The translations under genes and the position numbers were made by a program. The notes under the pieces are model-generated. The model made no database searches. It was not told the origin of the DNA and worked only from the letters and a program-made list of their open reading frames with translations. Source: a virus (Duplodnaviria; Heunggongvirae; Uroviricota; Caudoviricetes). From it: DNA of 32,689 nt. Positions 8,168 through 32,689 of the stretch are shown here, piece after piece (positions within the stretch are counted from its first letter, which is position 1; each line of letters starts with the position of its first letter). The stretch lies in the IMG/VR virus record IMGVR_UViG_2859783438_000003; one strand, 5' to 3'.

Positions 8168-8173
8168 AAATGT

Positions 8174-8400: not shown

Positions 8401-8640
8401 CACAGTTTCTGGAACCTTAGGTACTACAGTATCAGTCAGGGTGCTATATTTTCAGATGTGATGAAAGCCTGTCAGCAGGCAGGGCGTATCGGAAATGACC
8501 CAGTAGAGAAAACGTTGACTCAGATACCGGTGCTGAGTTACCGGGAAACCGGCATCACATGACCGCTATCCTTCCAGGCCCATCCGCTCCGGTGGGCCTT
8601 TTTACTGCAGAAAACAGGTTCCCCGTTAAATGCTATGTTG

Positions 8641-8880
8641 CTCACAATTCAGTAAGTTGACAGTTGCCTGTCAGACTGGGCATTTGTTAAAAAAATTTCG
8701 CATGGTGAATCCCCCTGAGCGGAGGGGCGACTGGTGACGGTATAATCTCTGATTATCAAAACGAGAATGACGCGGGTTTAGTGGCACCGGGCTGAACTCA
8801 CCGGGAGGCACCCGGCACCATGTGCATGATGATACAGATACGCGGCTTTAGCCCCTCTCCGGAGGGGTTTTCTTGTGGGC
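8641..8880 (+). ncRNA. structured non-coding module B (paralogue of A)
   Basis: Same block order as A (ctcacaattcag, gttgacagttg, tttgttaaaa, gcatggtgaatccccctg.gcggaggggc, caccgggaggcacccggca, cccctctccggagggg + T-run); preceded by its own hairpin + T-run. Confidence 0.25.
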
Positions 8881-9102
8881 AAAAAAAGCCCGCGCTGGGA
8901 GACGCGGGCGGCAAGGAATAAACAATAAAACGTGAAGTAATATTTCAGCTGGCGAATAATACCCCATAGTAATCACTCTGCGCAACTGCGCGGTCTTTTT
9001 CGAATTGCGGGCTGTCGTCTCTCTTCTGCCATTGTCCTGTAACTTCCGGACTTCAGCCCGCTCCTTATTTTACTCACAATATTATCCCGGCCGGGAGGAT
9101 TC

Positions 9103-10956
9103 ATGGCATTTAAACACTATGACGTGGTCAGGGCGGCATCGCCGTCAGACCTTGCGAAACGACTGACACAAAAACTGAAGGAGGGCTGGCAGCCGTTTGG
9201 TAGTCCGGTGGCCATAACCCCTTATACCCTGATGCAGGCGATTGCAGCAGAAGGTGATGTGGTCGTCAGTGGTGCAACTGAGCCGGAGTGGTACTACGTC
9301 ATCGTACTGGCCGGGCAATCCAATGCCATGGCTTACGGTGAAGGTCTTCCGCTTCCGGATTCATACGATGCGCCCCATCCGCGCATTAAGCAACTGGCCC
9401 GTCGTAACACAGTGACTCCCGGTGGTGAAGTATGCGTATTTAACGACATCATTCCTGCTGACCATTGTCTGCATGATGTTCAGGATATGAGTACGATTAA
9501 CCATCCCCGGGCTGACCTGAGCAAAGGGCAGTACGGCTGTGTCGGACAGGGCTTACATATTGCCAAAAAACTGCTTCCGTATATCCCTAATAATGCGGGG
9601 ATCCTGCTGGTACCATGCTGTTGTGGTGGTTCGGCATTCACCCAGGGCACGGAGGGGACATTCAGCGAGTCCACGGGGGCCAGTCAGGATTCGGCTCGCT
9701 GGGGAGTGGGTAAGCCGTTATATCAGGATCTGCTTTTCCGCACGAAGGCAGCATTGCAGAAAAACCCGAAAAACGTTTTGCTGGCGATATGCTGGATGCA
9801 GGGGGAATTCGATATGACGAATGCCAGTTACGCCCAGCAGCCAGCAGCATTTCTTGCAATGGTACAGCAGTTCCGTGCTGACCTTGCCGGGCTGGCGGCG
9901 CAGTGTCACGGTGGAAGTCCGGCATCAGTCCCCTGGATTTGTGGCGACACGACATACGCGTGGAAACAAGAACACGGTACGCAATATGAAGTGGTATATG
10001 GTGCATATAAAGGTAAAGAATCCCAGCAGATTTATTTTGTTCCCTTTATGACCGATGGTAGCGGAGTTAATACACCGACAAACAACCCGTCAGAAGATCC
10101 TGATATTGCCGGGTCTGGTTATTACGGTTCGGCATCCCGAACGAACAAAAACTGGGTATCATCAAATCGCCCGACGCATTTCAGCTCATGGGCGCGTCGT
10201 GGCATTATTCCCGATCGTATGGCAACTGCTATTCTGAACGTAGCCGGTCGCACCTTAGCCTTCATTAGTGGTAAGGCACCGGAAATCAAACCCTCGCCCG
10301 GCGGCGACACGCCATCGGGGCCGTCTGAAGATGCATCCATACGCACAATCTCCCTGTTGCCGACAGCCGGAGACGCTGCTGCGCAGGGCTGGAGCATTAA
10401 GAATGGCGGAGTTCAGTTGTCAGATGGTGTATTTAAGATCACCAAGCAGAGCAATAAAGCCTGGTCCCTGACGCGCCCGGTGGATGACGCAGTCTCCCTG
10501 CTGACACGGGGTGGCAGACTGAGCTGTAAGTTTCGACTGTCAGGCGCACTGACCAACAACCAGTTCGGTCTGGGAATTTATCTGTATACCGATGTAGCGT
10601 TACCTGACGTCGTGGCGATGACCGGGACTGGTAACCCGTTCCTGATGTCGTTCTTCACCCAGACCACAGACGGCAAACTGAATCTGATGCATCACAAGAA
10701 AGCAGGAAACACAAAGTTGGGCGAGTTCGGGAATTACAGTAACGACTGGCTGACGCTGGAGCTGGTGTTCACCGCCGGCAGTGCCACGGTTACTCCGAAA
10801 CTGAATGGAGTGGCTGGCCCGGCATTCCAGGTCATAAAAGACAGTCTGACACTGGGGCTGAATGCGCTGACGCTGACGGATATTACCAAAAATGCAGCGT
10901 ATGGCGTTGAGATAGAAAGTCTGGTGCTGGAGATAAATGCACCGGCATCATCATAA
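9103..10956 (+). CDS. NanS-p-like sialate O-acetylesterase (DUF1737 N-terminal domain + SGNH/SASA esterase core)
   Basis: 617 aa; N-terminus MAFKHYDVVRAASPSDLAKRL... and VIVLAGQSNAMAYGEG with the SGNH-type Ser; sits where prophage nanS-p genes sit downstream of the Q-tRNA block. Confidence 0.8.
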   Translation: MAFKHYDVVRAASPSDLAKRLTQKLKEGWQPFGSPVAITPYTLMQAIAAEGDVVVSGATEPEWYYVIVLAGQSNAMAYGEGLPLPDSYDAPHPRIKQLARRNTVTPGGEVCVFNDIIPADHCLHDVQDMSTINHPRADLSKGQYGCVGQGLHIAKKLLPYIPNNAGILLVPCCCGGSAFTQGTEGTFSESTGASQDSARWGVGKPLYQDLLFRTKAALQKNPKNVLLAICWMQGEFDMTNASYAQQPAAFLAMVQQFRADLAGLAAQCHGGSPASVPWICGDTTYAWKQEHGTQYEVVYGAYKGKESQQIYFVPFMTDGSGVNTPTNNPSEDPDIAGSGYYGSASRTNKNWVSSNRPTHFSSWARRGIIPDRMATAILNVAGRTLAFISGKAPEIKPSPGGDTPSGPSEDASIRTISLLPTAGDAAAQGWSIKNGGVQLSDGVFKITKQSNKAWSLTRPVDDAVSLLTRGGRLSCKFRLSGALTNNQFGLGIYLYTDVALPDVVAMTGTGNPFLMSFFTQTTDGKLNLMHHKKAGNTKLGEFGNYSNDWLTLELVFTAGSATVTPKLNGVAGPAFQVIKDSLTLGLNALTLTDITKNAAYGVEIESLVLEINAPASS

Positions 10957-14660: not shown

Positions 14661-15100
14661 ACTTTGCCCTCAGACTGGCGCGTGAGATGGGGAGACCCGA
14701 CTGGCGCGCCATGCTTGCCGGGATGACATCCACCGAATATGCCGACTGGCGCCGTTTTTACCGCACGCATTATTTTCAGGATACCCAGCTGGATATGCAT
14801 TTTTCCGGGCTGACGTACGCTGTACTCAGCCTGTTTTTTTGCGATCCGGATATGCATCCCTCTGATTTCAGTCTGCTTGTCCCCCGGCATGAGGAAGAGC
14901 AGGTGGAGAGGCCGGATGAGGACAAAATGCTGATGCAGAAAGCGGCAGGACTTGCCGGAGGCGTCCGGTTCGGTGGGGACGGAGGGCGCGATATTTTATC
15001 GTCTGCGGATGTGGCGGATGTCATGGTGGATGATGCCGCATTAATGATGGCTTCAGCGGGGATTCCGGGAGGTGTGAGATATGTCCCAGCCGGTTGGTGA
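14229..15100 (+). CDS. T: tail assembly chaperone G-T, made by programmed -1 frameshift at G GGA AAG (14636..14642)
   Basis: Slippery heptamer in the zero frame of G; the -1 frame continues GKVFDGELNFALRLAREMGRPDWRAMLAGMTSTEY..., matching lambda gpT. Confidence 0.75.
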
Positions 15101-18008
15101 TCTTGTTATTGACCTGAGTCTGGATGCTGTCCGTTTCGATGAGCAGATGAGCCGGGTAAGGCGTCATTTTTCAGGTCTGGATACCGACGCCAGAAAAACC
15201 GCCAGTGCTGTTGAACAGGGCCTGAGCCGCCAGGCGCTGGCTGCACAAAAAGCCGGGATTTCCGTCGGGCAGTATAAAGCGGCCATGCGAACCCTGCCCG
15301 CACAGTTTACGGATATCGCCACGCAGCTTGCCGGTGGTCAGAATCCCTGGCTGATCCTGCTGCAACAGGGCGGTCAGGTGAAGGACTCCTTCGGCGGGAT
15401 GATCCCCATGTTCAGGGGGCTTGCCGATGCGATCACCCTGCCGATGGTCGGGGTCACCTCGCTGGCGGTGGCGACAGGTGCACTGGTGTACGCCTGGTAC
15501 CAGGGAGATTCCACGCTTTCAGCGTTTAATAAAACCCTGGTTCTTTCCGGTAATCAGTCCGGACTGACTGCCGATCGTATGCTGACTCTCTCAAGAGCCG
15601 GGCAGGCAGCAGGGCTGACGTTTAACCAGGCGAGAGAGTCACTGGCAGCCCTGGTGAATGCCGGTGTGCGTGGTGGTGAACAGTTTGATGCCATCAACCA
15701 GAGTGTCGCGCGTTTTGCGTCTGCATCCGGTGTGGAGGTGGATAAAGTCGCTGAAGCCTTCGGGAAGCTGACCACTGACCCGACGTCGGGACTGATGGCG
15801 ATGGCGCGCCAGTTCCGTAACGTGACGGCAGAGCAGATTGCGTATGTTGCACAGCTGCAGCGTTCCGGAGACGAGGCCGGGGCATTGCAGGCGGCGAACG
15901 ATATCGCCACGAAAGGCTTTGATGAGCAGACCCGTCGCCTGAAAGAAAACATGGGAACACTGGAGACCTGGGCGGATAAAACAGGGAAGGCATTCAAATC
16001 GATGTGGGATGCCATTCTGGATATCGGTCGTCCGGAATCCTCAGCGGATATGCTCGCCAGTGCGCAGAAGGCATTTGATGAGGCGGATAAAAAATGGCAG
16101 TGGTACCAGAGTCGGAGCCAGCGCCGCGGTAAAACCTCCTCTTTCCGGGCCAACCTTCAGGGCGCATGGGATGACCGGGAAAATGCCCGTCTGGGTCTGG
16201 CAGCGGCAACGCTGCAGTCGGATATGGAAAAAGCCGGTGAACTGGCGGCAAGGGACAGGGCTGAGCGTGAGTCGTCACAGCTGAAGTATACCGGAGAGGC
16301 GCAGAAGGCGTATGAGCGCCTGCTGACGCCACTGGAGAATGCAGTCGGATATGGAAAAAGCCGGTGAACTGGCGGCAAGGGACAGGGCTGAGCGTGAGTC
16401 GTCACAGCTGAAGTATACCGGAGAGGCGCAGAAGGCGTATGAGCGCCTGCTGACGCCACTGGAGAAATATACCGCCCGGCAGGAAGAGCTGAATAAGGCC
16501 CTGAAAGACGGGAAAATCCTGCAGGCGGATTACAACACGCTGATGGCGTCGGCAAAAAAGGATTATGAGTCGACGCAGAAAAAGCCGTCCGGTGTGAAGG
16601 TGTCTGCCGGTGAGCGCCAGGAAGACCAGGCGCATGCAGCCCTGCTGGCGCTTGAAACTGAGCTCAGGACGCTGGAGAAGCACAGCGGTGCGAATGAAAA
16701 AATCAGCCAGCAGCGCCGTGATTTATGGAAAGCGGAAAATCAGTATGTNNNNNNNNNNNNNNNNNNNNNNNNNNNNNNNNNNNNNNNNNNNNNNNNNNNN
16801 NNNNNNNNNNNNNNNNNNNNNNNNNNNNNNNNNNNNNNNNNNNNNNNNAAGACCAGGCGCATGCAGCCCTGCTGGCGCTTGAAACTGAGCTCAGGACGCT
16901 GGAGAAGCACAGCGGTGCGAATGAAAAAATCAGCCAGCAGCGCCGTGATTTATGGAAAGCGGAAAATCAGTATGTGGTCCTGAAAGAGGCCGCCACGAAA
17001 CGGCAGTTATCTGAGCAGGAAAAATCCCTGCTGGCCCATGAGAAAGAAACGCTGGAGTACAAACGCCAGCTGGCTGAGCTGGGCGACAAGATTGAACACC
17101 AGAAACGGCTGAATGAGCTGGCACAGCAGGCGGCGCGGTTTGAACAGCAGCAGAGCGCGAAGCAGGCGGCAATCAGCGCAAAAGCCCGCGGACTCACCGA
17201 CCGTCAGGCGCAGCGGGAGTCGGAAGAGCAGCGCCTTCGTGAGGTGTACGGTGATAATCCGGCTGCGCTGGCGAAGGCCACATCTGCACTGAAGAACACC
17301 TGGTCTGCGGAGGAGCAGCTTCGTGGAAGCTGGATGGCCGGGATGAAGTCCGGCTGGGGCGAGTGGGCGGAAAGTGCGACGGACAGTTTTTCGCAGGTTA
17401 AAAACGCGGCCACGCAGACCTTTGACGGTATTGCACAGAATATGGCAGCGATGCTGATCGGCAGCGAACAGAACTGGCGTGGTTTCACCCGTTCTGTGCT
17501 GTCCATGCTGACAGAGATTTTTCTGAAGCAGGCGATGGTGGGGATAGTCGGGAGTATCGGCAGCGCCATTGGCGGTGCTTTCGGTGGTGGTGCGTCTGCC
17601 TCCACGGGGACGGCCATTCAGGCTGCGGCGGCGAACTTCCATTTCGCGACCGGGGGATTTACGGGGACGGGGGGTAAATATGAACCTGCGGGGATTGTTC
17701 ATCGCGGGGAGTTTGTCTTCACGAAGGAGGCGACCAGCCGGATTGGTGTCGGCAATCTGTACCGCCTGATGCGGGGCTATGCGGAAGGTGGTTATGTCGG
17801 CGGTGCCGGAAGTCCGGCGCAGATGCGGCGGGCGGAAGGCATTAATTTTAATCAGAACAATCACGTGGTGATTCAGAACGACGGCCCCAACGGGCGGGCA
17901 GGGCCGCAGCTGATGAAAGCGGTGTATGAGATGGCCCGCAAGGGGGCACAGGATGAACTCCGGCTGCAGTTGCGTGATGGCGGTATGTTATCAGGGAGCG
18001 GTGGATGA
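15081..18008 (+). CDS. H: tail tape measure protein H (reading frame broken in this assembly)
   Basis: N-terminus MSQPVGDLVIDLSLDAVRFDEQMSRVRRHFSG and C-terminus ...NNHVVIQNDGPNGRAGPQLMKAVYEMARKGAQDELRLQLRDGGMLSGSGG resemble lambda gpH; split into three track ORFs by a 125-bp tandem duplicate and an N gap. Confidence 0.8.
16214..16463 (+). repeat. 125-bp tandem duplication inside H (16214..16338 and 16339..16463) that shifts the frame
   Basis: Two adjacent near-identical copies differing by one base at the junction; the frame-0 ORF stops at 16367 and a frame-1 ORF restarts at 16339. Confidence 0.8.
16749..16848. other. assembly gap (100 N) inside H, flanked by an identical 127-bp direct repeat (16622..16748 and 16849..16975)
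   Basis: The 127 bases before and after the N run read identically, typical of overlapping contig ends that were not merged. Confidence 0.85.
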
Positions 18009-18334
18009 AAACCTTTCGCTGGAAAGTGAAGCCGGATATGGAGGTGAACTCGCAGCCATCGGTGCGTGAAGTGCGTTTTGGTGACGGGTACTCACAGCGT
18101 ATGGCGGCAGGGCTGAATGCTGACCTGAAAACATACAGGGTGACGCTTTCCGTGACCCGGGAGGAGGCCCGGCATCTGGAAGCGTTCCTGGCAGAGCACG
18201 GTGGCTGGAAGGCATTTTTGTGGAAGCCACCCTATGCATACCGGCAGATAAAGGTGACCTGTGCCGGGTGGTCTGCGCGGGTCGGGATGTTGCGCGTTGA
18301 GTTCAGCGCGGAGTTTAAGCAGGTGGTGAACTGA
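18005..18334 (+). CDS. M: minor tail protein M
   Basis: MKTFRWKVKPDMEVNSQPSVREVRFGDGYSQR...RVEFSAEFKQVVN resembles lambda gpM. Confidence 0.9.
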   Translation: MKTFRWKVKPDMEVNSQPSVREVRFGDGYSQRMAAGLNADLKTYRVTLSVTREEARHLEAFLAEHGGWKAFLWKPPYAYRQIKVTCAGWSARVGMLRVEFSAEFKQVVN

Positions 18335-19032
18335 TGCAGGATATTCGCGAAGAAAGTCTGAACGAGTCGGTTAAGTCAGAGCAGTCACCGCGGGTGGTAC
18401 TCTGGGAAATCGACCTGACGGTACAGGGTGGTGAGCGGTATTTTTTCTGTAATGAGCTGAATGAAAAAGGGGAGCCGGTCACCTGGCAGGGGCGTAAGTA
18501 TGAGGCATACCCGATTGACGGCAGCGGCTTTGAGATGAACGGCCGGGGCAGCAGTGCCAGACCGTCGCTGACGGTGTCCAATCTGTTCGGTCTGGTCACC
18601 GGGATGGCGGAAGACCTGCAGAGTCTGGTGGGGGCCACGGTGGTCCGCCGCCGGGTGTATGCCCGTTTTCTGGATGCGGTGAATTTCGTTGCGGGCAATC
18701 CGGAGGCGGACCCGGAGCAGGAGCTGAGTGACCGCTGGGTGGTGGAGCAGATGTCGCAGCTGACAGCCATGACGGCCTCGTTTGTGCTGGCTACACCGAC
18801 CGAGACGGACGGGGCGCTGTTTCCCGGTCGCATCATGCTGGCGAACACCTGTATGTGGGATTACCGGGGAGATGAATGCGGGTATAACGGTCCTGCGGTG
18901 GCGGATGAGTTCGACAACCCCACCACGGATATCCGTAAGGACAGATGCAGCAAGTGCATGCGCGGGTGTGAACTGCGCAGGAATGTCGGCAATTTTGGCG
19001 GTTTCCTTTCCATTAATAAACTTTCGCAGTAA
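18334..19032 (+). CDS. L: minor tail protein L
   Basis: MQDIREESLNESVKSEQSPRVVLWEIDL... and Cys-rich C-terminus resemble lambda gpL. Confidence 0.85.
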   Translation: MQDIREESLNESVKSEQSPRVVLWEIDLTVQGGERYFFCNELNEKGEPVTWQGRKYEAYPIDGSGFEMNGRGSSARPSLTVSNLFGLVTGMAEDLQSLVGATVVRRRVYARFLDAVNFVAGNPEADPEQELSDRWVVEQMSQLTAMTASFVLATPTETDGALFPGRIMLANTCMWDYRGDECGYNGPAVADEFDNPTTDIRKDRCSKCMRGCELRRNVGNFGGFLSINKLSQ

Positions 19033-19042
19033 ATCCCGGTTT

Positions 19043-19786
19043 ATGACACAGACTGAATCAGCGATTCTGGCACATGCCCGGCGGTGTGCGCCTGCGGAGT
19101 CGTGCGGCTTCGTGATAAGCACGCCGGAGGGGGAGCGGTATATCCCTTGTGTGAATATTTCCGCAGAGCCGGAGGCGTATTTTCGTATCGCACCGGAAGA
19201 CTGGCTGCGGGCAGAGATGCAGGGGGAGATTGTGGCACTGGTCCACAGTCATCCCGGTGGGCTGCCCTGGCTGAGCGAGGCTGACCGGCGGTTGCAGATA
19301 AAAAGCGCACTGCCCTGGTGGTTGGTCTGCCGGGGTGACATTCACAAATTCCGCTGTGTGCCACATCTGACAGGACGGCGCTTTGAGCACGGGGTGACGG
19401 ACTGTTACACGCTGTTCCGGGATGCTTATCATCTGGCGGGGACTGAAATGCCGGATTTTCATCGCGAGGATGACTGGTGGCGCAACGGTCAGAACCTTTA
19501 CCTGGACAATATGGCGGTCACCGGCTTTTACCGGGTGCCCCTGTCCTCTGCACAGGCGGGCGATATTCTGCTGTGCTGCTTTGGTGCTTCGGTACCGAAC
19601 CATGCCGCCATTTACTGCGGCAACGGTGAGCTGCTTCACCATCTGCCTGAACAACTGAGTAAACGGGAGAGGTATTCCGAAAAATGGCAACGACGAACGC
19701 ATTCAGTCTGGCGTCACCGCCACTGGCACGCATCTGCCTTCACGGGGATTTACAACGATTTGGCCGCCGCCTCAGCCTGTATGTGA
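19043..19786 (+). CDS. K: tail assembly protein K (NlpC/P60-like)
   Basis: MTQTESAILAHARRCAPAESCGFVISTPEGERY... with conserved Cys and His; 3' end overlaps I and may run long. Confidence 0.75.
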   Translation: MTQTESAILAHARRCAPAESCGFVISTPEGERYIPCVNISAEPEAYFRIAPEDWLRAEMQGEIVALVHSHPGGLPWLSEADRRLQIKSALPWWLVCRGDIHKFRCVPHLTGRRFEHGVTDCYTLFRDAYHLAGTEMPDFHREDDWWRNGQNLYLDNMAVTGFYRVPLSSAQAGDILLCCFGASVPNHAAIYCGNGELLHHLPEQLSKRERYSEKWQRRTHSVWRHRHWHASAFTGIYNDLAAASACM

Positions 19787-20362
19787 ACACGGCAGCGGAA
19801 GCCATTCGCGCCCTGTCGATGCAGATGCCGGGCTTTCGCCGTCAGATGAACGAAGGCTGGTACCAGATACGTATTGCCGGTTATGACACGGCACCGGAGG
19901 CGGTGTACGCCCGTCTTCACGAACAGCTGGGTGAGGGAACGGTCATCCACATTGTGCCGCGACTGGCCGGGGCCGGAAAGGGTGGACTGCAGATTGTGCT
20001 GGGGGCGGCAGCATCGTGGGCTCTTTCTTCACTGCCGGGGCATCAATGGCGTTATGGGGTTCAGCCTGGCAGCCGGTGGTTTTTCTGCCACCACGATGCT
20101 GTTTTCACTTGGAGCCAGCATGATTCTGGGCGGTGTGGCCCAGATGCTGGCCCCGAAGGCAAAAACACCGGATTACCGCGCAACGGATAACGGCAGACAG
20201 AACACGTACTTTTCCTCACTGGATAACATGATTGCCCAGGGGAACCCGATGCCGGTGCCTTACGGGGAAATGCTGGTTGGCTCCCGCCGTATATCCCAGG
20301 ACATCAGCACCCGTGATGAAGGCGGGGGCGGAAAGGTCGTGGTTATCGGGCGGCAGGGGTAA
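19684..20362 (+). pseudogene. I: tail assembly protein I, with two apparent frameshifts (about 19995..20060)
   Basis: Lambda gpI-like sequence is spread over three frames: MATTNAFSLASPPLARICLHGDLQRFGRR... then IVGSFFTAGASMALWG then GFSLAAGGFSATTMLFSLGASMILGGVAQMLAPKAKTPDYRATDNGRQNTYFSSLDNM...VVVIGRQG. Confidence 0.6.
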
Positions 20363-20705
20363 AAAGAATAAAAAAATCCCGCAGTGATCGCGGACAGGAA
20401 CTGCGGGAGAGTTACGAAGATTAAGTGTAAGGAATTATTCTTATATCACGACAAAAAAATTAACGCAGAGAAATTATACGCGCCACAGTCAGTTTGTGAA
20501 AATGTGAAGATATTCAGAATTTTTATGCCATTACCGGTTTTAACCAACAGGATTATCGGTGGGCATGAAAGAAAACCCCGGTATCTGCTGATACCGGGGT
20601 TTCTCTTTAGCATGGCAGAAATGTGTTTCATGCTTTTCGGGCGAAGGATATCCGACTTCTGTACGGAATGGCAAGTGGCGGTTAATTTATTCAGGGGAAG
20701 GCTGT

Positions 20706-23700
20706 ATGGGAAAAGGTGGCGGTAAGGCACACACGCCTCGTGAGGCGAAGGATAATCTCAAATCCACGCAGATGATGAGCGTGATTGATGCGATTGGTGA
20801 GGGACTGATAGAAGGTCCGGTGAAGGGACTGCAGAGTATCCTGGTGAACAAAACCCCGCTGACGGACACGGACGGTAATCCCGTGATACACGGTGTGACG
20901 GCGGTCTGACGCGCCGGGGAGCAGGAGCAGACACCACCGGAAGGCTTTGAGTCCTCCGGTGCTGAAACCGGACTGGGCGTGGAAGTGACGAAGGCAAAAC
21001 CGGTGACGCGCACCATTACGTCCGCGAACATTGACCGCCTGCGGGTTACCTTCGGGGTGCAGTCACTGGTGCAGACCACGTCAAAGGGTGACCGAAACCC
21101 GACATCCGTCCGCCTGCTGATTCAGTTACAGCGTAACGGTAACTGGGTGACAGAAAAGGATGTCACCATTAACGGCAAGACCACCTCGCAGTTTCTGGCG
21201 TCGGTGATTCTGGATAATCTGCCTCCCCGTCCTTTTAACATCCGGATGGTCCGGGAGACAGCGGACAGCACCACGGACCAGCTGCAGAATAAGACGCTGT
21301 GGTCGTCATACACCGAAATCATCGATGTGAAACAGTGCTACCCGAACACGGCCATTGTGGGGCTGCAGGTGGATGCGGAGCAGTTCGGCGGCCAGCAGAT
21401 GACGGTGAACTACCATATCCGCGGTCGCATCATCCAGGTGCCGTCAAACTATGACCCGGAAAAACGCACGTACAGTGGTATCTGGGACGGCAGCCTGAAA
21501 CCGGCATACAGCAACAATCCGGCCTGGTGTCTGTGGGACATGCTGACTCACCCGCGCTACGGCATGGGAAAACGTCTGGGGGCGGCGGATGTGGACAAGT
21601 GGGCGCTGTATGCCATCGGGCAGTACTGCGACCAGACGGTCCCGGATAGTTTCGGGGAGACCGAGCCGCGGATGACCTTCAATGCGTACCTGGCACAACA
21701 GCGTAAGGCATGGGACGTGCTCAGTGATTTCTGCTCGGCGATGCGCTGTATGCCGGTATGGAACGGCCAGACGCTGACGTTTGTTCAGGACCGCCCGTCG
21801 GATGTGGTGTGGCCGTACACCAACAGCGATGTGGTGGTGGATGATAACGGCGTGGGTTTCCGCTACAGCTTCAGTGCCCTGAAGGACCGGCACACGGCGG
21901 TGGAGGTGAATTATACCGACCCGCAGAACGGCTGGCAGACCTCCACGGAACTGGTGGAAGACCCGGAAGCCATACTGCGCTACGGACGCAACCTGCTGAA
22001 GATGGACGCGTTCGGCTGTACCAGCCGCGGTCAGGCCCACCGTGCCGGACTGTGGGTGATAAAGACCGAACTGCTGGAAACGCAGACGGTGGATTTCACG
22101 CTCGGGTCTCAGGGGCTGCGGCACACACCCGGTGACATCATTGAAATCTGTGATAACGACTATGCCGGGACCCTGACCGGCGGACGTGTCCTGTCCATTG
22201 ATGCTGCCACCCGCACTCTGACGCTGGACCGTGAAGTGACACTTCCGGAGACCGGTGCCGCCACGGTGAACCTGATTAACGGCAGCGGTAAGCCGGTGAG
22301 TGTGGACATCACCGAACACCCCGCGCCGGACCGGATACAGGTCAGTACCCTGCCTGATGGTGTGGAGACATACGGGGTGTGGGGACTCTCCCTGCCGTCA
22401 CTGCGCCGTCGCCTGTTCCGCTGTGTCTCCGTCCGGGAAAACACGGACGGCACCTTTGCCATCACGGCGGTGCAGCACGTACTGGAAAAAGAAGCCATCG
22501 TGGATAACGGTGCCCGCTTTGAGCCGCAGTCAGGTTCCCTGAACAGCGTCATCCCACCGGCAGTGCAGCACCTGACGGCCAGTATCTGGCGCAGGCGAAA
22601 TGGGACACGCCGCGGGTGGTGAAGGGTGTGCGCTTCAGTCTGCGCCTGACCAGTGGTAAGGGAACGGATGCCAGACTGGTGACCACCGCCATCACCGCAG
22701 ACACGGAGCACCGTTTCAGCGGCCTGCCGCTCGGGGAATACACCCTGACGGTGCGGGCGATAAACAGCTATGGCCAGCAGGGTGAACCTGCCACCACCAC
22801 CTTCCGGATTGCCGCACCGGCAGCACCGTCGCGGATTGAGCTGACGCCGGGCTATTTTCAGATAACCGCAACGCCGCATCTTGCCGTTTATGACCCGACG
22901 GTACAGTTTGAGTTCTGGTTCTCGGAAAAGCGGATTGCGGATATCAGGCAGGTTGAAACCAGCGCCCGCTATCTTGGCACGGCGCTGTACTGGATAGCCG
23001 CCAGTATCAATATCAAACCGGGCCATGATTATTATTTTTACGTTCGCAGTGTGAACACCGTTGGCAAATCGGCATTCGTGGAGGCTGTCGGTCGGGCGAG
23101 CGATGATGCGGAAGGTTACCTGGATTTTTTCAAAGGAGAGATAGGGAAAACACATCTGGCTCAGGAGCTGTGGACGCAGATTGATAACGGTCAGCTTGCG
23201 CCTGACCTGGCTGAAATCAGGACGTCCATTACGGATGTCAGCAATGAAATCACGCAGACTGTCAATAAGAAACTGAAAGACCAGAGTGCGGCAATCCAGC
23301 AGATACAGAAGGTTCAGGTTGATACAAATAATAATCTGAACAGCATGTGGGCTGTGAAGCTGCAACAGATGAAGGACGGACGCCTTTATATTGCGGGTAT
23401 CGGTGCCGGTATTGAGAATACGCCAGCAGGAATGCAGAGTCAGGTGCTGCTGGCGGCAGACAGGATTGCGATGATTAATCCTGCGAATGGCAACACAAAG
23501 CCGATGTTTGTTGGTCAGGGCGATCAGATATTCATGAACGACGTGTTCCTGAAACGCCTGACGGCTCCCACCATTACCAGCGGCGGTAATCCTCCGGCAT
23601 TTTCCCTGACACCGGACGGAAAACTGACCGCTAAAAATGCAGATATCAGTGGCAGTGTGAATGCGAACGCCGGGACGCTCAACAATGTCACAATTAATGA

Positions 23701-24157
23701 GAACTGTCAGATTAAGGGGAAACTGTCAGCCAACCAGATTGAAGGCGATATAGTCAAAACAGTGGGTAAGGCTTTTCCGCGGGACTCCCGGGCACCGGAG
23801 CGGTGGCCATCAGGGACCATTACCGTCAGGATTTATGACGATCAGCCTTTTGACAGGCAAATTGTTATTCCGGCGGTGGCATTCAGCGGCGCTAAACATG
23901 AGCGGGAGAATAACGATATTTATTCGTCATGCCGCCTGATAGTACGGAAAAACGGTGCTGAAATTTATAACCGTACCGCGCTGGATAATACGCTGATTTA
24001 CAGTGGTGTTATTGATATGCCAGCTGGTCGCGGCCACATGACGCTGGAGTTTTCGGTGTCAGCATGGCTGGTGAATAACTGGTATCCCACAGCAAGTATC
24101 AGCGATTTGCTGGTTGTGGTGATGAAGAAAGCCACCGCAGGCATCAGTATCAGCTGA
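20706..24157 (+). pseudogene. J: tail tip / central fibre protein J, with an in-frame TGA at 20907..20909 and a frameshift near 22570..22620
   Basis: MGKGGGKAHTPREAKDNLKSTQMMSVIDAIGEG... closely resembles lambda gpJ; stop replaces the residue before RAGEQEQTPPEGFE in the same frame; later PPAVQHLTA in frame 0 continues as [24 protein letters not shown] in frame 2. Confidence 0.7.
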
Positions 24158-24975: not shown

Positions 24976-27732
24976 ATGACAGTAAAAATTTCTGGCGTGC
25001 TTAAAGATGGCACAGGAAAACCAGTACAGAACTGCACCATTGTGCTGAAGGCCAGACGAACCAGCAGCACGATGGTGGTGAACACGGTGGCCTCTGAAAA
25101 TCCGGATGAAGCCGGACGTTACAGCATGGATGTTGAGCATGGTCAGTACAGCGTCACCCTGCTGGTTGAAGGTTTTCCGCCTTCACATGCCGGGACCATT
25201 ACCGTCTATGAAGGTTCCAGACCAGGTACGCTGAATGATTTTCTCGGTGCCATGACGGAGGATGATGTCCGACCGGAGGCACTGCGCCGCTTTGAGCAGA
25301 TGGTGGAAGAGGTGTCACGTAACGCCTCCGCGGTTGCACAGAATACGGCAGCCGCGAAAAAATCAGCCAGCGAGGCGGCAACTCATGCAACCGATGCTGC
25401 AGCCTCAGCACGTGCCGCCAGCACGTCAGCCGGACAGGCCGCGTCGTCGGCTCAGTCAGCGTCTTCCAGCGCAGGAACGGCATCGACAAAGGCCCGTGAA
25501 GCAGCAAAAAGTGCTGCTGCAGAGTCATCAAAAAGCGCGGCAGCTACCAGCGCCAGTGCCGCGAAAACGTCAGAAACGAATGCCGCAGCATCACAAAAAT
25601 CGGCAGCCACTTCTGCATCCACAGCGACCACGAAGGCGTCAGAAGCTGCCACCTCGGCACGGGGTGCGGCGGCCTCAAAAGAGGCAGCGAAATCTTCAGA
25701 AACGAATGCATCATCAAGTGCCAGTAGTGCAGCTTCCTCGGCAACGGCGGCAGGAAATTCCGCGAAGGCGGCAAAAACGTCCGAGACGAACGCTAAGTCT
25801 TCTGAAACAGCAGCGGGACAGAGCGCCTCAGCTGCGGCAGGTTCAAAAACAGCGGCTGCATTATCTGCCAGTGCCGCGTCAACAAGTGCCGGGCAGGCCT
25901 CAGCCAGTGCCACCGCCGCCGGAAAATCGGCAGAAAGCGCCGCATCATCCGCGTCAACAGCCACAACGAAGGCTGGCAAAGCCACTGAGCAAGCCACTGC
26001 AGCAGCGAGGTCTGCTTCTGCAGCAAAAACCTCTGAAACAAATGCAAAGACTTCAGCAGACAATGCTGCTTCCTCTAAGGCAGCAGCCGCATCGTCAGCC
26101 AGTTCAGCGGCGTCATCGGCATCATCTGCGTCTGCTTCAAAAGATGAGGCGACCAGACAAGCGTCAGCAGCGAAAGGTAGTGCCACGACAGCAACAACGA
26201 AAGCATCAGAGGCGGCAGGCAGTGCGACGGCTGCATCTCAGAGCAAAGTTGCTGCTGAATCCGCGGCAACGCGCGCCGAGACAGCAGCAAAACGGGCAGA
26301 GGATATTGCATCCGCCGTGGCGCTGGAGGATGCGAGCACGACGAAAAAGGGGATAGTACAGCTCAGCAGTGCGACCAACAGCACTTCCGAGTCACTGGCG
26401 GCAACGCCAAAAGCGGTTAAGGCGGTAATGGGTGAAACGAACAAGAAAGCGCCCTTAAATAGTCCTGCACTGACCGGAACGCCAACAACACCAACTGCGC
26501 GACAGGGAACGAATAATACCCAAATCGCAAGCACGGCTTTCGTTATGGCTGCGATTGCCGCCCTTGTAGATTCGTCACCTGATGCACTGAACACGCTGAA
26601 CGAGCTGGCTGCGGCGCTGGGCAACGACCCGAATTTTGCGACCACCATGACTAACGCGCTTGCGGGTAAGCAACCGAAAGATGCCACCCTGACGGCGCTG
26701 GCCGGACTTACTACTGCGGCAGGCAAGTTTCCGTATTTTACGGGGAATGATGTCGCCAGCCTGGCAACCCTGACAAAAGTCGGGCGGGATATTCTTGCGA
26801 AATCGACCGTTGCTGCCGTTATCGAATACCTCGGTTTACAGGAAACGGTAAACAAGGCTGGTAACGCCGTTCAGCGTTCCGGCGATAAAATGACCGGAGA
26901 ACTGAAAATTGGCACGGTGAATGCGCTGCGAATTTTCAATGATACCTTCGGTCTAATTTTCCGTCGTTCAGAAGATTTTCTTCATTTCATTCCGACGGCT
27001 GAAGGACAAGGCGAAAACGGTAATATCGGCCCATTAAGGCCATTCGCTATAAATCTGAGAACAGGTGCTATATCTGTCAGCCACGGGGCCAAAATTAAAG
27101 GAGGTCTAGCTATTGGAGCTACTGATAACGCACTGGGTGAAAACTCCATTGTTCTGGGAGATAACGACACCGGATTTAGGCAAGATGGAGATGGTATTAT
27201 TAGCTTCTATTCAAATGGTTCGCGCATCGGACATATTGATGAGTTAGGATTACATCTTTATAAAGATATTGAATCTAATGGCAGCAATTTTAGATTAAAA
27301 AGTAATTACCGCCACCACATTACATTCGCCAACGAAGACGGAAGAATTCGTATGTTTTTGTGGAAAGATAACGGTGGTGATGGTGTTCATATTAATAACG
27401 GTTCAGATGGTGGTGGTGATTTCATTTTTAAAACAGATGGGGGATTTGCGCTGGGAAGTGGTGCGCAAGTTGCGTCTAGTGGCGATATTTATGGTTCAGT
27501 GTGGGAAAACAACTGGTTAAGCACATGGCTGCATAATCATGTCGTTCGGGATATTCGTCTTGGCAGCATTGAATATAAAAACGTATGGCGCGACTACGGC
27601 TTTGGCGATGCGTCAGGTTATGTTTTAACAGCCGCAATTAACAGCAATGCGGATGATATTGTCGACACTGTTGCCAGAAGGCCAATTCAGAAATTGATTG
27701 GGGGAATATGGTACAACGTGGGGAGTGTTTAA
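24976..27732 (+). CDS. stf: side tail fibre protein Stf with long Ala/Ser/Thr-rich repeat region
   Basis: 918 aa; N-terminus [30 protein letters not shown] resembles lambda Stf; residues about 110-470 are low-complexity repeats (AAKTSETNA...); C-terminal Gly-rich fibre domain. Confidence 0.85.
26819..26844 (+). other. left crossover site for a Gin/Pin/Hin-type DNA invertase, inside stf
   Basis: TTATCGAATACCTCGGTTTACAGGAA; right half matches the gix/pix consensus TTATCCAAAACCTCGGTTTACAGGAA as I recall it; inverted relative to the site at 29735..29760. Confidence 0.6.
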
Positions 27733-28289: not shown

Positions 28290-28823
28290 TCATTCTGGTT
28301 GTTCGGGAAACGTTACTGGCAGGCTGGAGGTGTCTGTGGATTCAACCTTCTGCGCATAGAGCATCCACTCGGTTAATTTTTGTTTATTCTCATCGGAAAT
28401 GATGCCCAGCTGTAGCTGAGAGTCCCACAGCTGGGTTTTATCCCTGACGAGCTGCAGCAGGCTCTGCTTTTCATTTTCCGCTTGTTGCCTTTGCTCTTCC
28501 TCGGTATAAGTTCGCTTTATCACCGCACCATCTTTGAACATCCAGTTGCCCGAAATATCAGCCCGGCGATTTGCTGTAATATCAGGCAACTCAACGACAC
28601 TTAAACCTTCTGGATTAATTGCTGATACATCCTTGTCTATAGCAATAATTATTCCCTCAACTGTGTAAGCCAGTTTTATTGTATCCTCCTGAAAGTTTTT
28701 TAATTCCTCATGCCAATTTTTTCCATCTTCGGACCATAACCAGATAACATCAAAATTCTTTGTTAGCTGGTATTGTTCAACGGTTTTTGGATTACCTGCG
28801 ACAATGTTTTTTAAATGCTGCAT
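28290..28823 (-). CDS. alternative tail fibre assembly protein Tfa' (inverted orientation)
   Basis: [40 protein letters not shown]... paralogue of the plus-strand Tfa. Confidence 0.75.
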
Positions 28824-28975: not shown

Positions 28976-29734
28976 CTAAACAACTCGTGTGCCAAGTCTG
29001 ACATCTCTCACATAGCGGGAATCAAAGTTACCGTAATCCGAGGGATTAACACGTCCCGTAATATTTATGGTTTTATTACTTTGAATGCTTCCGGAGACAA
29101 AGCGCATAACATGGACGTTATTAGCATAAACATCCAGATTACCATCGCCTTTTTGTTTAAAGCCCGTGTCATTATCACCCAATACAATCGAATTACCGCC
29201 AAGAGCACTGGATGTTCCGATACCCAGTGCACCATTCAGTTGACCACCAGATAACGGCAGTGCACCAACATCTCCTGCTGAAGGTTTTCTGGTGGTGTAA
29301 AATTCGGACCAGTCGGCTTCAAAACCATAACCATCACGGGCTGAACGATAAAAAATACCGCCATTTTTATAATTAATCCGAAACTGAGCTGCAGGACAAC
29401 TTCCTTCTCCCATATAAAAATGAATAATTAACGTTGATGCACCACTAATAGTTGCGTTATAGGCTCCGCTACTCCAGTTCCATCCAACTGCTTTATCATT
29501 CGCAACGGTGCTTCCTGTTTTCCCTAAGGCAAACGCACCAACATGACTTGCTTTTAATGTGATATCGGAGGAACCATCAAAAGCCACATTGCTTATTTTC
29601 CTGGCAGTTTTTAATTTTGCAGCTGTAGAAGCATTGCCGGATAGTTCACCAGAAAGGCCACCGCTGAATGTTTGTCGATTAGTCCAGGTATTCGCTGTAC
29701 TGAGTAACGGTATTTTCTCCCCGCTTGTGCCGAG
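28976..29734 (-). CDS. alternative tail-fibre C-terminal cassette (promoterless, starts at the crossover site)
   Basis: Minus-strand frame open from the crossover site: LGTSGEKIPLLSTANTWTNRQTFSGGLSGELSGNASTAAKLKTARKISNVAFDGSSD... ...[21 protein letters not shown]; in frame with stf if the segment inverts. Confidence 0.65.
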   Translation of the reverse strand, partial: LGTSGEKIPLLSTANTWTNRQTFSGGLSGELSGNASTAAKLKTARKISNVAFDGSSDITLKASHVGAFALGKTGSTVANDKAVGWNWSSGAYNATISGASTLIIHFYMGEGSCPAAQFRINYKNGGIFYRSARDGYGFEADWSEFYTTRKPSAGDVGALPLSGGQLNGALGIGTSSALGGNSIVLGDNDTGFKQKGDGNLDVYANNVHVMRFVSGSIQSNKTINITGRVNPSDYGNFDSRYVRDVRLGTRVV

Positions 29735-29760
29735 TTCTCGTAAACCGAGGTTTTAGATAA
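29735..29760 (-). other. right crossover site for a Gin/Pin/Hin-type DNA invertase
   Basis: Plus strand TTCTCGTAAACCGAGGTTTTAGATAA, whose complement TTATCTAAAACCTCGGTTTACGAGAA matches the left site and the gix/pix consensus. Confidence 0.65.
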
Positions 29761-29790: not shown

Positions 29791-30045
29791 GTGCTTTTGG
29801 ACGGGAGATTCAGCGTGCTGATTGGCTATGTAAGGGTATCAACAAATGACCAGAATACAGACCTGCAACGAAACGCTCTTGTTTGTGCAGGATATGAACA
29901 AATATTTGAAGATAAATTAAGCGGAACAAGGACAGGCCGACCTGGATTAAAACGTGCTTTAAAGCGCCTTCAAAAAGGTGACGCACTGGTTGTCTGAAAA
30001 CTGGACTGACTGGGTCACTGTATGCGGCATCTTGTCGTGCTGGTG
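29791..30045 (+). pseudogene. pin: serine-recombinase DNA invertase (Pin/Gin family), inactivated
   Basis: GTG start then LIGYVRVSTNDQNTDLQRNALVCAGYEQIFEDKLSGTRTGRPGLKRALKRLQKGDALVV, then TGA where the family has W, a second TGA, degenerate sequence, and fusion to a tfa 3' end around 30039. Confidence 0.75.
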
Positions 30046-30120
30046 GTGGAAGCCTAGAAAAAGTATCGGGTGTTGCTGAACCGTGTTGATACATCAACTG
30101 CACCTGATATTGAGTGGCCT
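30039..30120 (+). pseudogene. tfa 3'-end fragment, duplicate of 31104..31185
   Basis: Encodes ...[21 protein letters not shown], nearly identical in DNA to the end of ORF 30921..31190. Confidence 0.6.
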
Positions 30121-30195
30121 ACGAACCCTGTCAGGGAGTAATCATTGGGATTATGCCGCAGCACGTCTTAAGCAAGAACGTGCTGCGGTTGGATG

Positions 30196-30864
30196 CTATT
30201 TTTTCCCTGAAGCGGAAAACATTACTACAGTACCTTGAACCCTGGTTTTAACATTCTCGAAATGCTCTGAGAGTATATGTGTTAAGCCTTCTTCGGAATC
30301 TTTTGTGTTTGAAAAGATGCCTTTCTGATTGTAAATGCGCATCAGTTTTTGACCGAAGCTATTGTGCACAACTCCATCGCCAAGAATTGTGGCTCCGTAT
30401 AGAGTTCCATCATCAGTTAAGGCCTGCGCCGCATTGCGTATTACACAGCTTTTTGTAGATATATTTCCAGGCAGGCAGTGAAGAAGGTAAAACATGGAAA
30501 TGGAATCAAATTGACCATGTAACGCCGCGGGATAAGGTTCAAAAACATCATGGCTAATTTTATGTTTAATTTTTGATTCCCCAGCCCTTGTAGATGCCGC
30601 GTTCAGGCTAGCTTCGTTCAAATCCATTAAAGATATCAGACTACTCTCAGGTACGTGAGTAAGGTAAAACCCAGTTCCAACACCAATATCCAGATGGTTG
30701 TTACCTAAATGTTCCAGAAAGTGTGGAAGAAGGTGTTCCTTTGTAGGACATCCCCATGCAAGCCGATTTGATACTCCCAAAACCCACCAGTCATAAAGCT
30801 TTAGGGTAAGTGGTGTGTAAATTTTAGCCCCATCATCTGTGTTTTTTTTCATTAATTTCACCAT
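30196..30864 (-). CDS. class I SAM-dependent methyltransferase, substrate unknown (AT-rich cargo gene)
   Basis: 222 aa with glycine-rich motif I LDIGVGTG and downstream acidic and hydrophobic motifs of Rossmann-fold methyltransferases; lower GC than the flanking phage genes. Confidence 0.65.
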   Translation of the reverse strand: MVKLMKKNTDDGAKIYTPLTLKLYDWWVLGVSNRLAWGCPTKEHLLPHFLEHLGNNHLDIGVGTGFYLTHVPESSLISLMDLNEASLNAASTRAGESKIKHKISHDVFEPYPAALHGQFDSISMFYLLHCLPGNISTKSCVIRNAAQALTDDGTLYGATILGDGVVHNSFGQKLMRIYNQKGIFSNTKDSEEGLTHILSEHFENVKTRVQGTVVMFSASGKK

Positions 30865-30920
30865 ATTATAGTTTTATTTGTGAATTAAATCAATTATGGC
30901 GATGAATTACAAGGGGTTAA

Positions 30921-31190
30921 ATGCTGCCGCAGCATAGCGATATTGAAATAGCCTGGTATGCTTCGATACAGCAGGAGCCGAATGGCTGGAAGACCGTCAC
31001 CACACAGTTCTACATCCAGGAATTCAGTGAGCATATTGCGCCACTTCAGGATGCTGTAGATCTGGAGATCGCAACGGAGGAAGAAAACTCGTTGCTGGAA
31101 GCCTGGAAGAAGTATCGGGTGTTGCTGAACCGTGTTGATACATCAACTGCACCTGATATTGAGTGGCCGGAAGAACCAGACACAATGTAA
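30921..31190 (+). pseudogene. tail fibre assembly protein fragment (C-terminal half only)
   Basis: Ends ...[37 protein letters not shown] like Tfa C-termini; lacks the conserved N-terminal ...KNI.AGNP.. region. Confidence 0.55.
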
Positions 31191-31316
31191 GGCAGTATGA
31201 CTTTCCGTGAGACAGATGCTGGCCAACGTGGGATATTTAACGCGGGTTAACATCGTTGTCAGAGCCGCATGGGTGAGCTGTTGCTACACCCCGGTATTTC
31301 CACCACGGAGGCCAGC

Positions 31317-31411
31317 ATGAACAACAATAACACATTGTACGTCGGGTTAGATGTTCACAAAGAATCGATTACTGTCGCTTATGCTATCAATTCAGAACCT
31401 GTTGAACTGAT
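31317..31411 (+). mobile_element. start of an IS110-family-like transposase gene (rest in gap)
   Basis: GGAGG then ATG; MNNNNTLYVGLDVHKESITVAYAINSEPVEL has the VG.DV.K motif typical of IS110-family N-termini; call is tentative. Confidence 0.4.
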
Positions 31412-31511
31412 NNNNNNNNNNNNNNNNNNNNNNNNNNNNNNNNNNNNNNNNNNNNNNNNNNNNNNNNNNNNNNNNNNNNNNNNNNNNNNNNNNNNNNNNN
31501 NNNNNNNNNNN
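31412..31511. other. assembly gap (100 N)
   Basis: Run of N between an IS110-like start and an IS1 3' part. Confidence 0.95.
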
Positions 31512-31730
31512 GATGGCTGGCCGCTGTATGAATCCCGCCTGAAGGGAAAGCTGCACGTAATCAGCAAGCGATATACGCAGCGAATTGAGCGGCATAACCT
31601 GAATCTGAGGCAGCACCTGGCACGGCTGGGACGGAAGTCGCTGTCGTTCTCAAAATCGGTGGAGCTGCATGACAAAGTCATCGGGCATTATCTGAACATA
31701 AAACACTATCAATAAGTTGGAGTCATTACC
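31512..31730 (+). mobile_element. insB: IS1, 3' part of a second copy (InsB C-terminus 31512..31715 plus terminal repeat)
   Basis: Same InsB C-terminal translation as 523..726 and terminal ...caataagttggagtcattacc. Confidence 0.85.
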
Positions 31731-31759
31731 TATGCCGCAGACACGTCGTATGCAGGAAC

Positions 31760-32005
31760 GTGCTGCGGTTAGTTTGTGAGCTTTCGATAGTGGTTGTTAT
31801 TTTTGCCCTTATTTGTTCCGGAGGCCATGGTTCAATGGTCCGTCTGCCCCCTGTGGTGATGTCAGCAAAATCAGCCACTGCGCGAACCACAATAGCCCGG
31901 GAAGATGCTGAAGATCACCAGGTAAAGCTGTCAGCGCAGAAACTGGAAGAACTGCTCGCATCAATGGTTAAGGATGAGGTTGATCGCAATGATGGGATTT
32001 ATTGA
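31760..32005 (+). CDS. hypothetical protein or gene fragment (81 aa, or 48 aa from an internal Met)
   Basis: ORF from track starting right after the IS1 end; no family recognised. Confidence 0.25.
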   Translation: MLRLVCELSIVVVIFALICSGGHGSMVRLPPVVMSAKSATARTTIAREDAEDHQVKLSAQKLEELLASMVKDEVDRNDGIY

Positions 32006-32131: not shown

Positions 32132-32689
32132 TTAAAACCGCATCAACCTTTCCACCAATTGTTCTTTACGGGCAACGATCCACCCATGTTGCTCCAGATA
32201 AAATTTAAACCGTTCCAGAGTGCATACCATCGCATCGGCGGGGACTTTTTCTGTGAACTCGACCTGACCGTGTTTATCGAAGTGGATCAGTAATGCGCAT
32301 CCATTATTTGGGGCGGGGGAGTTTTGTGCTGCAGGAGGACGTTTGTGGAGTTCTTCTTCCATTGCGTTAAATTTTTCAATGTAAGCTTCTTTTAGTCTGG
32401 CTGCTTTTTTGCCAGTAAATCCCATTACGAGGAACATGAAGCCGTCTTTTGTGATCAGGTAGCATCGTGATTCACGTTCTGCGCCGTTGCCAATTTCGAC
32501 AGTCTGAACATCGGCCGAAAAGTTGGCTGATGTAAATTCGGGAGAGCAGTCGAGTGTGTCAATCTTAGCTAAAACGTGTTTATGTTGTTTATCGAAGTAG
32601 TCGGCAACAGCTTGAGAGGTGGTAACCAGGCGACCATCTTTGAAAAAGACTTTTGGTGACTCGTTAGAAAAAGTTATAGCTGTATTCAT
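32132..32689 (-). CDS. Rha-family phage regulatory protein
   Basis: 185 aa; N-terminal VTTSQAVADYFDKQHKHVLAKIDTL... is typical of the Rha N-terminal domain; ATG is at the window edge. Confidence 0.6.
   Translation of the reverse strand: MNTAITFSNESPKVFFKDGRLVTTSQAVADYFDKQHKHVLAKIDTLDCSPEFTSANFSADVQTVEIGNGAERESRCYLITKDGFMFLVMGFTGKKAARLKEAYIEKFNAMEEELHKRPPAAQNSPAPNNGCALLIHFDKHGQVEFTEKVPADAMVCTLERFKFYLEQHGWIVARKEQLVERLMRF

Follow-up and report, generated by a model that had tools for sequence, protein, structure and literature searches.

The window analysed here, that is the whole stretch of 32,689 nucleotides (nt) of the virus record IMGVR_UViG_2859783438_000003 (Caudoviricetes), terminates within the right arm of a lambdoid prophage. 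Close to this end, an open reading frame (ORF) for a predicted class I S-adenosylmethionine (SAM)-dependent methyltransferase is located antisense to the phage late operon. The surrounding region was shown to be the conserved cassette tfaD'-ybcY-tfaX of ~1.1 kb from the DLP12 prophage of Escherichia coli K-12. It consists of the following features, where the sign gives the strand and tfa denotes tail-fibre assembly genes.

29791-30043, +: dead pin-type serine invertase gene, N-terminal part only (Pfam Resolvase N-terminal domain, E 4.6e-15)
30044-30141, +: left tfa 3' remnant, corresponding to the end of K-12 tfaD, with in-frame stop and direct repeat D1
30155-30188: hairpin 1, a GC-rich stem-loop
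30196-30864, -: ybcY-family class I SAM-dependent methyltransferase ORF, annotated with 222 amino acids (aa), containing LDIGVGTG
30865-30920: divergent promoter spacer of 56 nt, 25% GC
30921-31190, +: tfa' (tfaX), a 5'-truncated tail-fibre assembly ORF of 89 aa
31192-31730, +: debris of insertion sequences (IS) between tfa' and hairpin 2
about 31192-31412: 5' end of ISSso6 (IS110 family), 100% match to ISSso6 copies
31413-31511: run of 100 N between the ISSso6 and IS1 fragments
31512-31730: 3' end of IS1, 99.6-100% identical to the IS1A copies of locus L001 (NCBIfam transpos_IS1, E 4e-13)
31734-31767: hairpin 2, a bulged version of hairpin 1

An earlier model-made description of this DNA, based on its letters alone and called the sequence-only reading below, had reported a minus-strand methyltransferase of 222 aa with an LDIGVGTG motif in AT-richer DNA. 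Both statements were confirmed. The ORF is intact and scores above the cut-offs of Pfam Methyltransf_12, _23, _25 and _11. Its GC content of 40.8% (35% at third codon positions) compares with 51.7% for the window and corresponds to the 1.2 percentile among equal-sized windows; the adjoining tail-fibre tip, tfa and pin sequences are low in GC as well (42-45%).

A conserved cassette

The locus was checked for collinearity with K-12 and found to be collinear. In the DLP12 prophage of K-12 MG1655 the order is nohD, a terminase fragment, a tfa fragment, the frameshifted methyltransferase gene, a second tfa fragment, appY, ompT and envY. We take ybcY, flanked by tfaD (aaaD) and tfaX, to be the gene names at this position. 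In line with this naming, published work refers to the 'ybcY <> tfaX' spacer (PMC3946193) and to 'ompT ... upstream of ybcY'. The methyltransferase gene shares 99% nucleotide identity with its frameshifted K-12 counterpart, and residues 5-222 of the product match positions 1-218 of the 218 in the profile of phrog_2132, the YbcY family of the K-12 b0562 locus, with an E value of 1.9e-156. This PHROG family has no assigned function, and the names of cluster members are all generic.

Both loci share the left tfa 3' end with its hairpin, the antisense methyltransferase, the divergent AT-rich spacer and the truncated tfa, and the promoter hexamers are alike except for one base. They differ in other respects. 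The K-12 ybcY is frameshifted whereas the ORF of the window is intact; the left tfa remnant has 146 codons fused to a terminase fragment in K-12, compared to 98 nt fused to the dead pin here; and in the window ISSso6 and IS1 lie between tfa' and its hairpin.

The gene is not a novel cargo. Of 5426 complete E. coli genomes, 3832 (~70%) contain DNA of the methyltransferase gene at 95-100% identity, with one to four copies of cassette DNA per positive genome, almost always chromosomal. The gene also occurs on different backbones in 15 Escherichia phage records, ev243 and 2G7b included, among the 50,697 records searched. The ORF is intact in 14 of these 15, in ST131, in O157 and in this window. 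Nothing at the locus constitutes a new kind of element, as thousands of genomes already carry an annotation for it, which reads ybcY in K-12 and 'class I SAM-dependent methyltransferase' in other genomes.

As a unit, the cassette comprises a left tfa 3' end with hairpin, the antisense methyltransferase gene, the AT-rich divergent spacer and a 5'-truncated tfa with a second hairpin. It is ~97-99% identical at the nucleotide level in K-12 DLP12, ST131 strain EC958, VL7S7 and ev243, and the sequence beyond it differs. Its edges are sharp: ev243 matches positions 30068-31145 of the window at 98.4% and differs outside, K-12 matches 30044-31167 at 97%, and Shigella-type loci match 30156-31191. Several backbones carry it. 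The cassette lies beside ompT in DLP12 and ev243, at the ompW-trp site in ST131 and in the prophage of this window, which is thus not located beside ompT as in K-12, and next to ipaH in Shigella-type prophages. In the last group (L015, L017 and L018, ~5675-9970; Shigella flexneri and E. coli ECMA0423) it adjoins an ipaH-type gene for an effector with leucine-rich repeats and an E3 ligase, which is broken by an IS4-like transposase gene. This adjacency points to a cargo hot spot common to the cassette and to type III effector genes.

Flanks of the cassette

The sequence-only reading had regarded the methyltransferase gene as inserted between two copies of a tfa 3' end and two copies of a hairpin. 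The duplications as such are real. Direct repeat D1 relates the tfa 3' end at 30044-30119 to 31093-31168 (76 nt, 96% identity); the second interval had been given as 31104-31185, which is shifted by ~16 nt, and the similarity ends at 31168. Repeat D2 connects the 3' halves of the hairpins, both of which are present (30162-30190 versus 31742-31770, 90% identity). In relatives without IS elements, VL7S7 (L001) and EC958 (L095), the duplicated unit is a single direct repeat of 148 nt with 89% identity. It had also been noted correctly that IS110-like and IS1 fragments break the second set of repeats. This IS debris is missing from the otherwise collinear loci of VL7S7 and EC958. The run of exactly 100 N inside it suggests masking or a gap in the assembly.

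The interpretation as an insertion could not be upheld. The repeats are the 3' ends and terminator hairpins of two tfa paralogues, which diverge upstream of a common 76-155 nt, and the same cassette is found in K-12, EC958, ev243 and others. The interpretation has to be replaced by that of a conserved cassette between paralogous tfa ends that was later damaged by a pin-tfa deletion and by IS insertions. Insertion of an IS or transposon with target-site duplication was considered separately and rejected, since repeats of 76-148 nt with 89-96% identity represent the ends of diverging paralogues. A transposon-type insertion is further contradicted by the absence of a transposase from the cassette, by ISSso6 and IS1 being later arrivals and by the occurrence of the same cassette on other backbones. 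As a side observation, other ISSso6 copies are flanked by sequence that matches the 7 nt preceding the ISSso6 end here, a hint that this element is specific for its target sequence.

The left flank is a dead pin'::'tfa in-frame fusion with in-frame stops. One reading frame extends from the pin N-terminus into the left tfa remnant, with the translation ...GDALVV*KLD*LGHCMRHLVVLVV (asterisks denote stops) joined to the tfa C-terminus. RefSeq labels this tfa position as a partial tail fiber assembly protein.

On the right, tfa' retains just the C-terminal third of Tfa, corresponding to positions 75-130 of the 131 in the Pfam Caudo_TAP profile. It gives a full-length match to phrog_2341 (88 positions) and is 51% identical to the C-terminus of the full-length tfa in the window. 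An AAGGGG ribosome-binding site on the plus strand precedes the ATG by 5 nt, and the ev243 counterpart has 101 aa. Judged by these features, tfa' may be expressed as a short Tfa C-domain protein and not be just a pseudogene. The Rfam model IS009 (RF02111), which is listed as 'Gene', matches 30944-31147 on the plus strand with 129 bits against a gathering score of 117, and partially 30019-30098. Since the main match is the coding sequence of the truncated tfa ORF, this model probably describes a fragment of a protein gene rather than a structured RNA.

Hairpin 1 has a perfect outer stem of 12 bp, a fold energy of -28.6 kcal/mol and a z-score of -3.5; in shuffled sequence, 0 chance matches to its pattern are expected. 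It is located 14 nt past the left tfa stop and 6-7 nt past the methyltransferase stop codon. A U-run is found on the plus (tfa) strand only, in the region 30211-30216 where it overlaps the last methyltransferase codons, and is missing on the methyltransferase strand. CssrB is a chromosome-encoded small RNA (sRNA) of Shigella. The tfa-sense strand of hairpin 1 (30156-30187, +) is identical to the consensus of the 3'-terminal stem-loop in the Rfam CssrB model, positions 149-180 of 180; the remaining part of the model has no match in the window. Because of the U-run on the tfa strand and the CssrB identity in tfa sense, hairpin 1 is best read as a tfa terminator. It is probably a terminator in tfa sense and a shared 3' end structure, and is abutted by the methyltransferase gene. 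CssrB itself may be the transcript of a tfa 3' end; a literature search on CssrB returned unrelated papers only. Hairpin 2 (fold energy -25.2 kcal/mol) follows tfa' directly on its 3' side in VL7S7, L015 and L019, as well as in EC958, and is the normal 3' structure downstream of tfa'.

An ORF of 45 aa (30114-30251, +) covers hairpin 1 and reaches into the methyltransferase gene at its 3' end. It is listed in RefSeq as 'hypothetical protein' WP_001309429.1 and its K-12 counterpart is annotated as 'nucleocapsid protein'. No family match was obtained for it, and it is most likely a spurious call.

The methyltransferase and its relatives

As judged from sequence and predicted fold, the protein is a class I (Rossmann-fold) SAM-dependent methyltransferase. 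Motif I, LDIGVGTG, occupies residues 58-65, with GxGxG conserved in all 38 homologues aligned, and the further features of the class are found: a seven-stranded sheet flanked by helices, and an acidic residue for the SAM ribose where strand 2 ends. The alignment comprised 38 members that are 56-98% identical to the query. It contains 57 invariant columns, among them YDWWV, W37xC39, HLDIGVGTGYY, D81, D106, FDSxSxxYLLHCLPG, GATILG and YNxKGIFSN with an invariant D two residues on. Compared to homologues of 64-75% identity, dN/dS is 0.09-0.12, which indicates purifying selection.

A search of 5.8 billion proteins gave 2296 relatives, and a scan of one genome per species 388 loci. The family is spread over the Proteobacteria, with loci in Enterobacterales, Pasteurellaceae, Pseudomonas, Xanthomonadales, Legionella and Betaproteobacteria. 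Members outside E. coli are encoded by solitary chromosomal genes, with differing contexts in Enterobacter, Yersinia, Proteus and Dyella. When the neighbouring ORFs of 73 loci from about 30 genera were clustered, no conserved partner or operon was found; the recurrent neighbours were generic only (SDR, LysR, ABC ATPase, autotransporters, Mfd). The chromosomal members (STM1638; Enterobacter, Yersinia, Proteus, Pseudomonas, Dyella) resemble the product of the window in length, with 46-69% identity, in being encoded by solo genes and in the invariant motifs YDWWV, HLDIGVGTGYY, FDSxSxFYLLHCLPG, GATILG and YNxKGIFSN. They differ in not being phage-borne and in being mostly basic proteins.

The homologue STM1638 of Salmonella enterica (56% identical) is chromosomal and keeps its place next to rydC and cybB across subspecies. 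The sequence-only reading had held that strong homology to a housekeeping methyltransferase with conserved host synteny would speak against cargo. A homologue with conserved synteny thus exists, but nothing marks STM1638 as a housekeeping gene. In the literature it appears only as the neighbour of rydC. In the Salmonella enterica locus L003 the gene spans 8001-8663, a gene for a PMT_2-family membrane glycosyltransferase lies 460 nt upstream and sseJ is 6 kb away. The adjacent rydC sRNA activates the lipid methyltransferase gene cfa.

NCBIfam returned sub-threshold matches only (CpaM and RquA, E about 0.002-0.004), and a search of the literature for ybcY found no paper on its function and no characterised member of the YbcY family.

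Substrate class

The AlphaFold model is confident (pLDDT 90.8) and consists of a bare Rossmann core that is capped by two helices at the N-terminus and has a helical insertion following strand 5. Foldseek placed phosphatidylethanolamine (PE) N-methyltransferase at the top, followed by juvenile-hormone-acid O-methyltransferase (JHAMT), phosphoethanolamine methyltransferases and C-methyltransferase domains of polyketide synthases. Sequence matches in the PDB were weak and limited to JHAMT, UbiG and two uncharacterised methyltransferases; a search of a viral structure library added nothing specific.

The protein was compared with solved small-molecule and lipid methyltransferases: PE N-methyltransferase (8ys9), JHAMT (7ebs, 7ec0), UbiG (4kdr), phosphoethanolamine N-methyltransferase (3uj7), MM_2633 (3dtn) and BelI (9fce). 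Common to all are the Rossmann core with GxGxG, the acidic end of strand 2, LH(H/C/W) after strand 4, a short N-terminal helical cap and a size of about 200-260 aa. The distance is nevertheless large, with identities of just 12-21%, TM-scores of 0.55-0.65 and HMMER E values of 1e-5 or worse. The Trp/Tyr-rich N-terminal motif of YbcY has no counterpart in these alignments, and common substrate-binding residues were not established. In sequence and modelled fold the protein thus resembles small-molecule and lipid methyltransferases and not DNA methyltransferases. The PmtA-like and carboxyl-O-methyltransferase-like resemblances are to be regarded as leads, not as assignments. The sequence-only reading had held that the substrate could not be read from the sequence, but the class is narrowed by the missing DNA methyltransferase motifs and by the small-molecule and lipid enzymes among the nearest relatives.

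It is very improbable that the enzyme is an orphan or anti-restriction DNA methyltransferase with a role in protecting phage DNA or in epigenetic reprogramming of the host. Orphan DNA methyltransferases are common in phages, and PADLOC gave a weak match to mad2 of a methylation-associated defence system (E 0.0026), its only match. Against this, motif IV of DNA methyltransferases, (D/N/S)PP(Y/F/W/H) or PCQ, was found in none of the 38 homologues, a target-recognition domain is absent from the model, and no DNA methyltransferase occurs among the best 50-60 structural matches. Moreover, the gene is antisense to the late genes in a region of cargo expressed in the lysogen, and its homologues are solo chromosomal genes.

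Methylation of RNA (tRNA or rRNA) or of a host protein, by which translation or a surface or regulatory protein would be tuned in the lysogen, appears rather unlikely. Most homologues are basic, a property that fits membrane binding and RNA binding alike, but the phage-borne E. coli form is neutral with a pI of 7.2. The bare core of 218 aa with its short helical cap carries no additional domain for RNA binding or substrate recognition, and the matches at the sequence level are all small-molecule O-methyltransferases.

Two library screens in K-12 touch the neighbouring gene. One for itaconic-acid tolerance lists tfaX together with tam, the gene of trans-aconitate methyltransferase (PMC5064937), and one for kanamycin survival lists tfaX (PMC12924614). 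As ybcY is frameshifted in K-12, the joint listing of tfaX and tam is suggestive but uninterpretable.

Expression and function

A promoter for the methyltransferase gene is predicted on the minus strand, with a -35 hexamer TTGATT (30893-30888), a spacer of 17 nt and a -10 hexamer TATAAT (30870-30865). In the promoter scan, ten of its twelve positions match the sigma-70 consensus; a weaker candidate lies upstream at 30920-30893. For K-12, genomic SELEX showed binding of RNA polymerase sigma-70 holoenzyme to the ybcY-tfaX spacer in vitro, the ybcY promoter is listed as TTGATT-17-TATAAC, and an H-NS site is recorded in the same spacer (PMC3946193).

The -10 hexamer of the window ends one base before the annotated ATG, so that a transcript from the predicted promoter could be translated only from M5. 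The conservation with homologues from other genera begins only at this residue, as does the PHROG profile, and GGTGA is located 5 nt upstream of its ATG at 30852. The real start is therefore probably M5, which would give a product of 218 aa.

Cargo genes of lambdoid phages known as morons (lambda lom and bor, HK97 gp15) are single genes with their own promoter and terminator between genes of the late operon. The assignment of the gene to a moron position distal to the tail fibres of a lambdoid prophage, made in the sequence-only reading, agrees with our findings. Its composition, orientation and predicted own promoter fit a moron: a sigma-70-type promoter is predicted, the GC content is lower, the site is distal to the tail fibres, the presence in related phages is patchy and a hairpin lies on the 3' side. 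It departs from known morons in being antisense to the late operon. In addition, the hairpin does not qualify as a canonical ybcY terminator, since a U-run is missing on the methyltransferase strand.

We hold with moderate confidence, as a whole, the explanation of the region as a ybcY cassette that spreads via tfa homology and encodes a small-molecule or lipid methyltransferase of lysogenic conversion. According to this proposal, the cassette would have a single origin, in an ancestral lambdoid phage that carried two tfa genes, or pieces of them, in tandem, and would later have been transferred among lambdoid backbones by homologous recombination via the tfa and tail-fibre homology on its flanks. 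In the case of this window, fusion to the dead pin would have deleted the left tfa down to 98 nt, and ISSso6 and IS1 would subsequently have inserted between tfa' and its hairpin. The enzyme would be made in the lysogen from its own promoter, with H-NS probably damping expression. With SAM as the methyl donor, it would modify a small molecule or the head-group of a lipid, and the most likely reaction is O- or N-methylation of a metabolite or a toxin. The enzyme would act alone, without partner proteins, as a lysogenic-conversion function and not on DNA; action as a stand-alone enzyme is suggested by the lack of a conserved neighbour across the 73 loci.

The gene is probably functional, because the ORF is intact, dN/dS is low and the 57 columns are invariant. 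Several observations weigh against the proposed explanation. The K-12 copy is a frameshifted pseudogene and some other copies are 1-2 nt short, from which it follows that the cell can do without the gene under laboratory conditions. Pairs of E. coli copies differ by only 1-5 substitutions, too few to inform on selection. The best predicted promoter leaves a leader of just 5-7 nt before M5, and promoter use and start codon are both predicted. Likewise, the spread by recombination via tfa homology is deduced from the mosaic boundaries.

Part of this evidence would also suit a hitch-hiker that has no role in E. coli and is frequent only because the tail-fibre/tfa region in which it resides is prone to recombination and belongs to very common, mostly defective prophages. 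The disrupted copies and the low divergence within E. coli are compatible with such a passenger. So are the dead genes around the cassette here (pin with in-frame stops, tfa remnants, IS debris) and the H-NS binding, which suggests silencing. We consider it unlikely, as the ORF has stayed intact in this window, ST131, O157 and nearly all of the phage records, the family as a whole is under long-range constraint with dN/dS about 0.1, and a consensus-like promoter has been kept.

Tail-fibre region

The features next to the cassette on either side are listed below.

24976-27732, +: side tail fibre gene (stf), 918 aa
27698-28261, +: tfa of the stf gene
28290-28823, -: alternative tfa, inverted
28976-29587, -: alternative fibre tip, inverted
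3' of the cassette region, before Rha: DUF4376 fibre fragment
32132-32689, -: Rha regulator gene

Two pix/gix-like 26-mers, at 26819-26844 inside stf and at 29735-29760, form inverted repeats that are alike in 22 of 26 positions, and the alternative tfa and the alternative fibre tip lie between them. The segment 26819-29760 (to 30043) is a frozen invertible tail-fibre segment of the Mu G / P1 C / e14 P type. Since the adjoining pin invertase gene is truncated and has in-frame stops, this tail-fibre switch is unable to flip on its own. Hairpin 1 had been considered as a recombination site of Pin as well. This was rejected, as the pix-like sites are found elsewhere and the hairpin is the 3' stem-loop of an Rfam sRNA model.

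Further upstream on the plus strand, the tail genes at ~15081-24157 look broken into overlapping ORFs (e.g. 15081-16367, 16339-16983 and 16725-18008; 20979-22622 and 22616-24157). The pattern suggests that the tape-measure and J-like genes are frameshifted and that the prophage is hence defective.

Conclusion

Among intact cargo genes in E. coli prophages, the ybcY of this cassette ranks with the commonest, being present among others in ST131, in O157 and in Shigella-type loci adjacent to ipaH. The frameshift of the K-12 copy may explain why ybcY never gave a phenotype. A bolder proposal, which we regard as quite unlikely on present evidence, is that YbcY is a lysogenic-conversion enzyme with a specific host-relevant substrate, e.g. 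by N-methylation of PE or by O-methylation that detoxifies a carboxylic acid or heterocyclic toxin. In the first case, methylated phospholipids normally missing from E. coli would be formed; in the second, the toxin would be derived from the host or from a competitor. If so, a single unstudied gene would enable the prophages of ~70% of E. coli genomes to change the chemistry of membranes or metabolites. For prophage biology, assignment of the substrate would be a real if modest advance.

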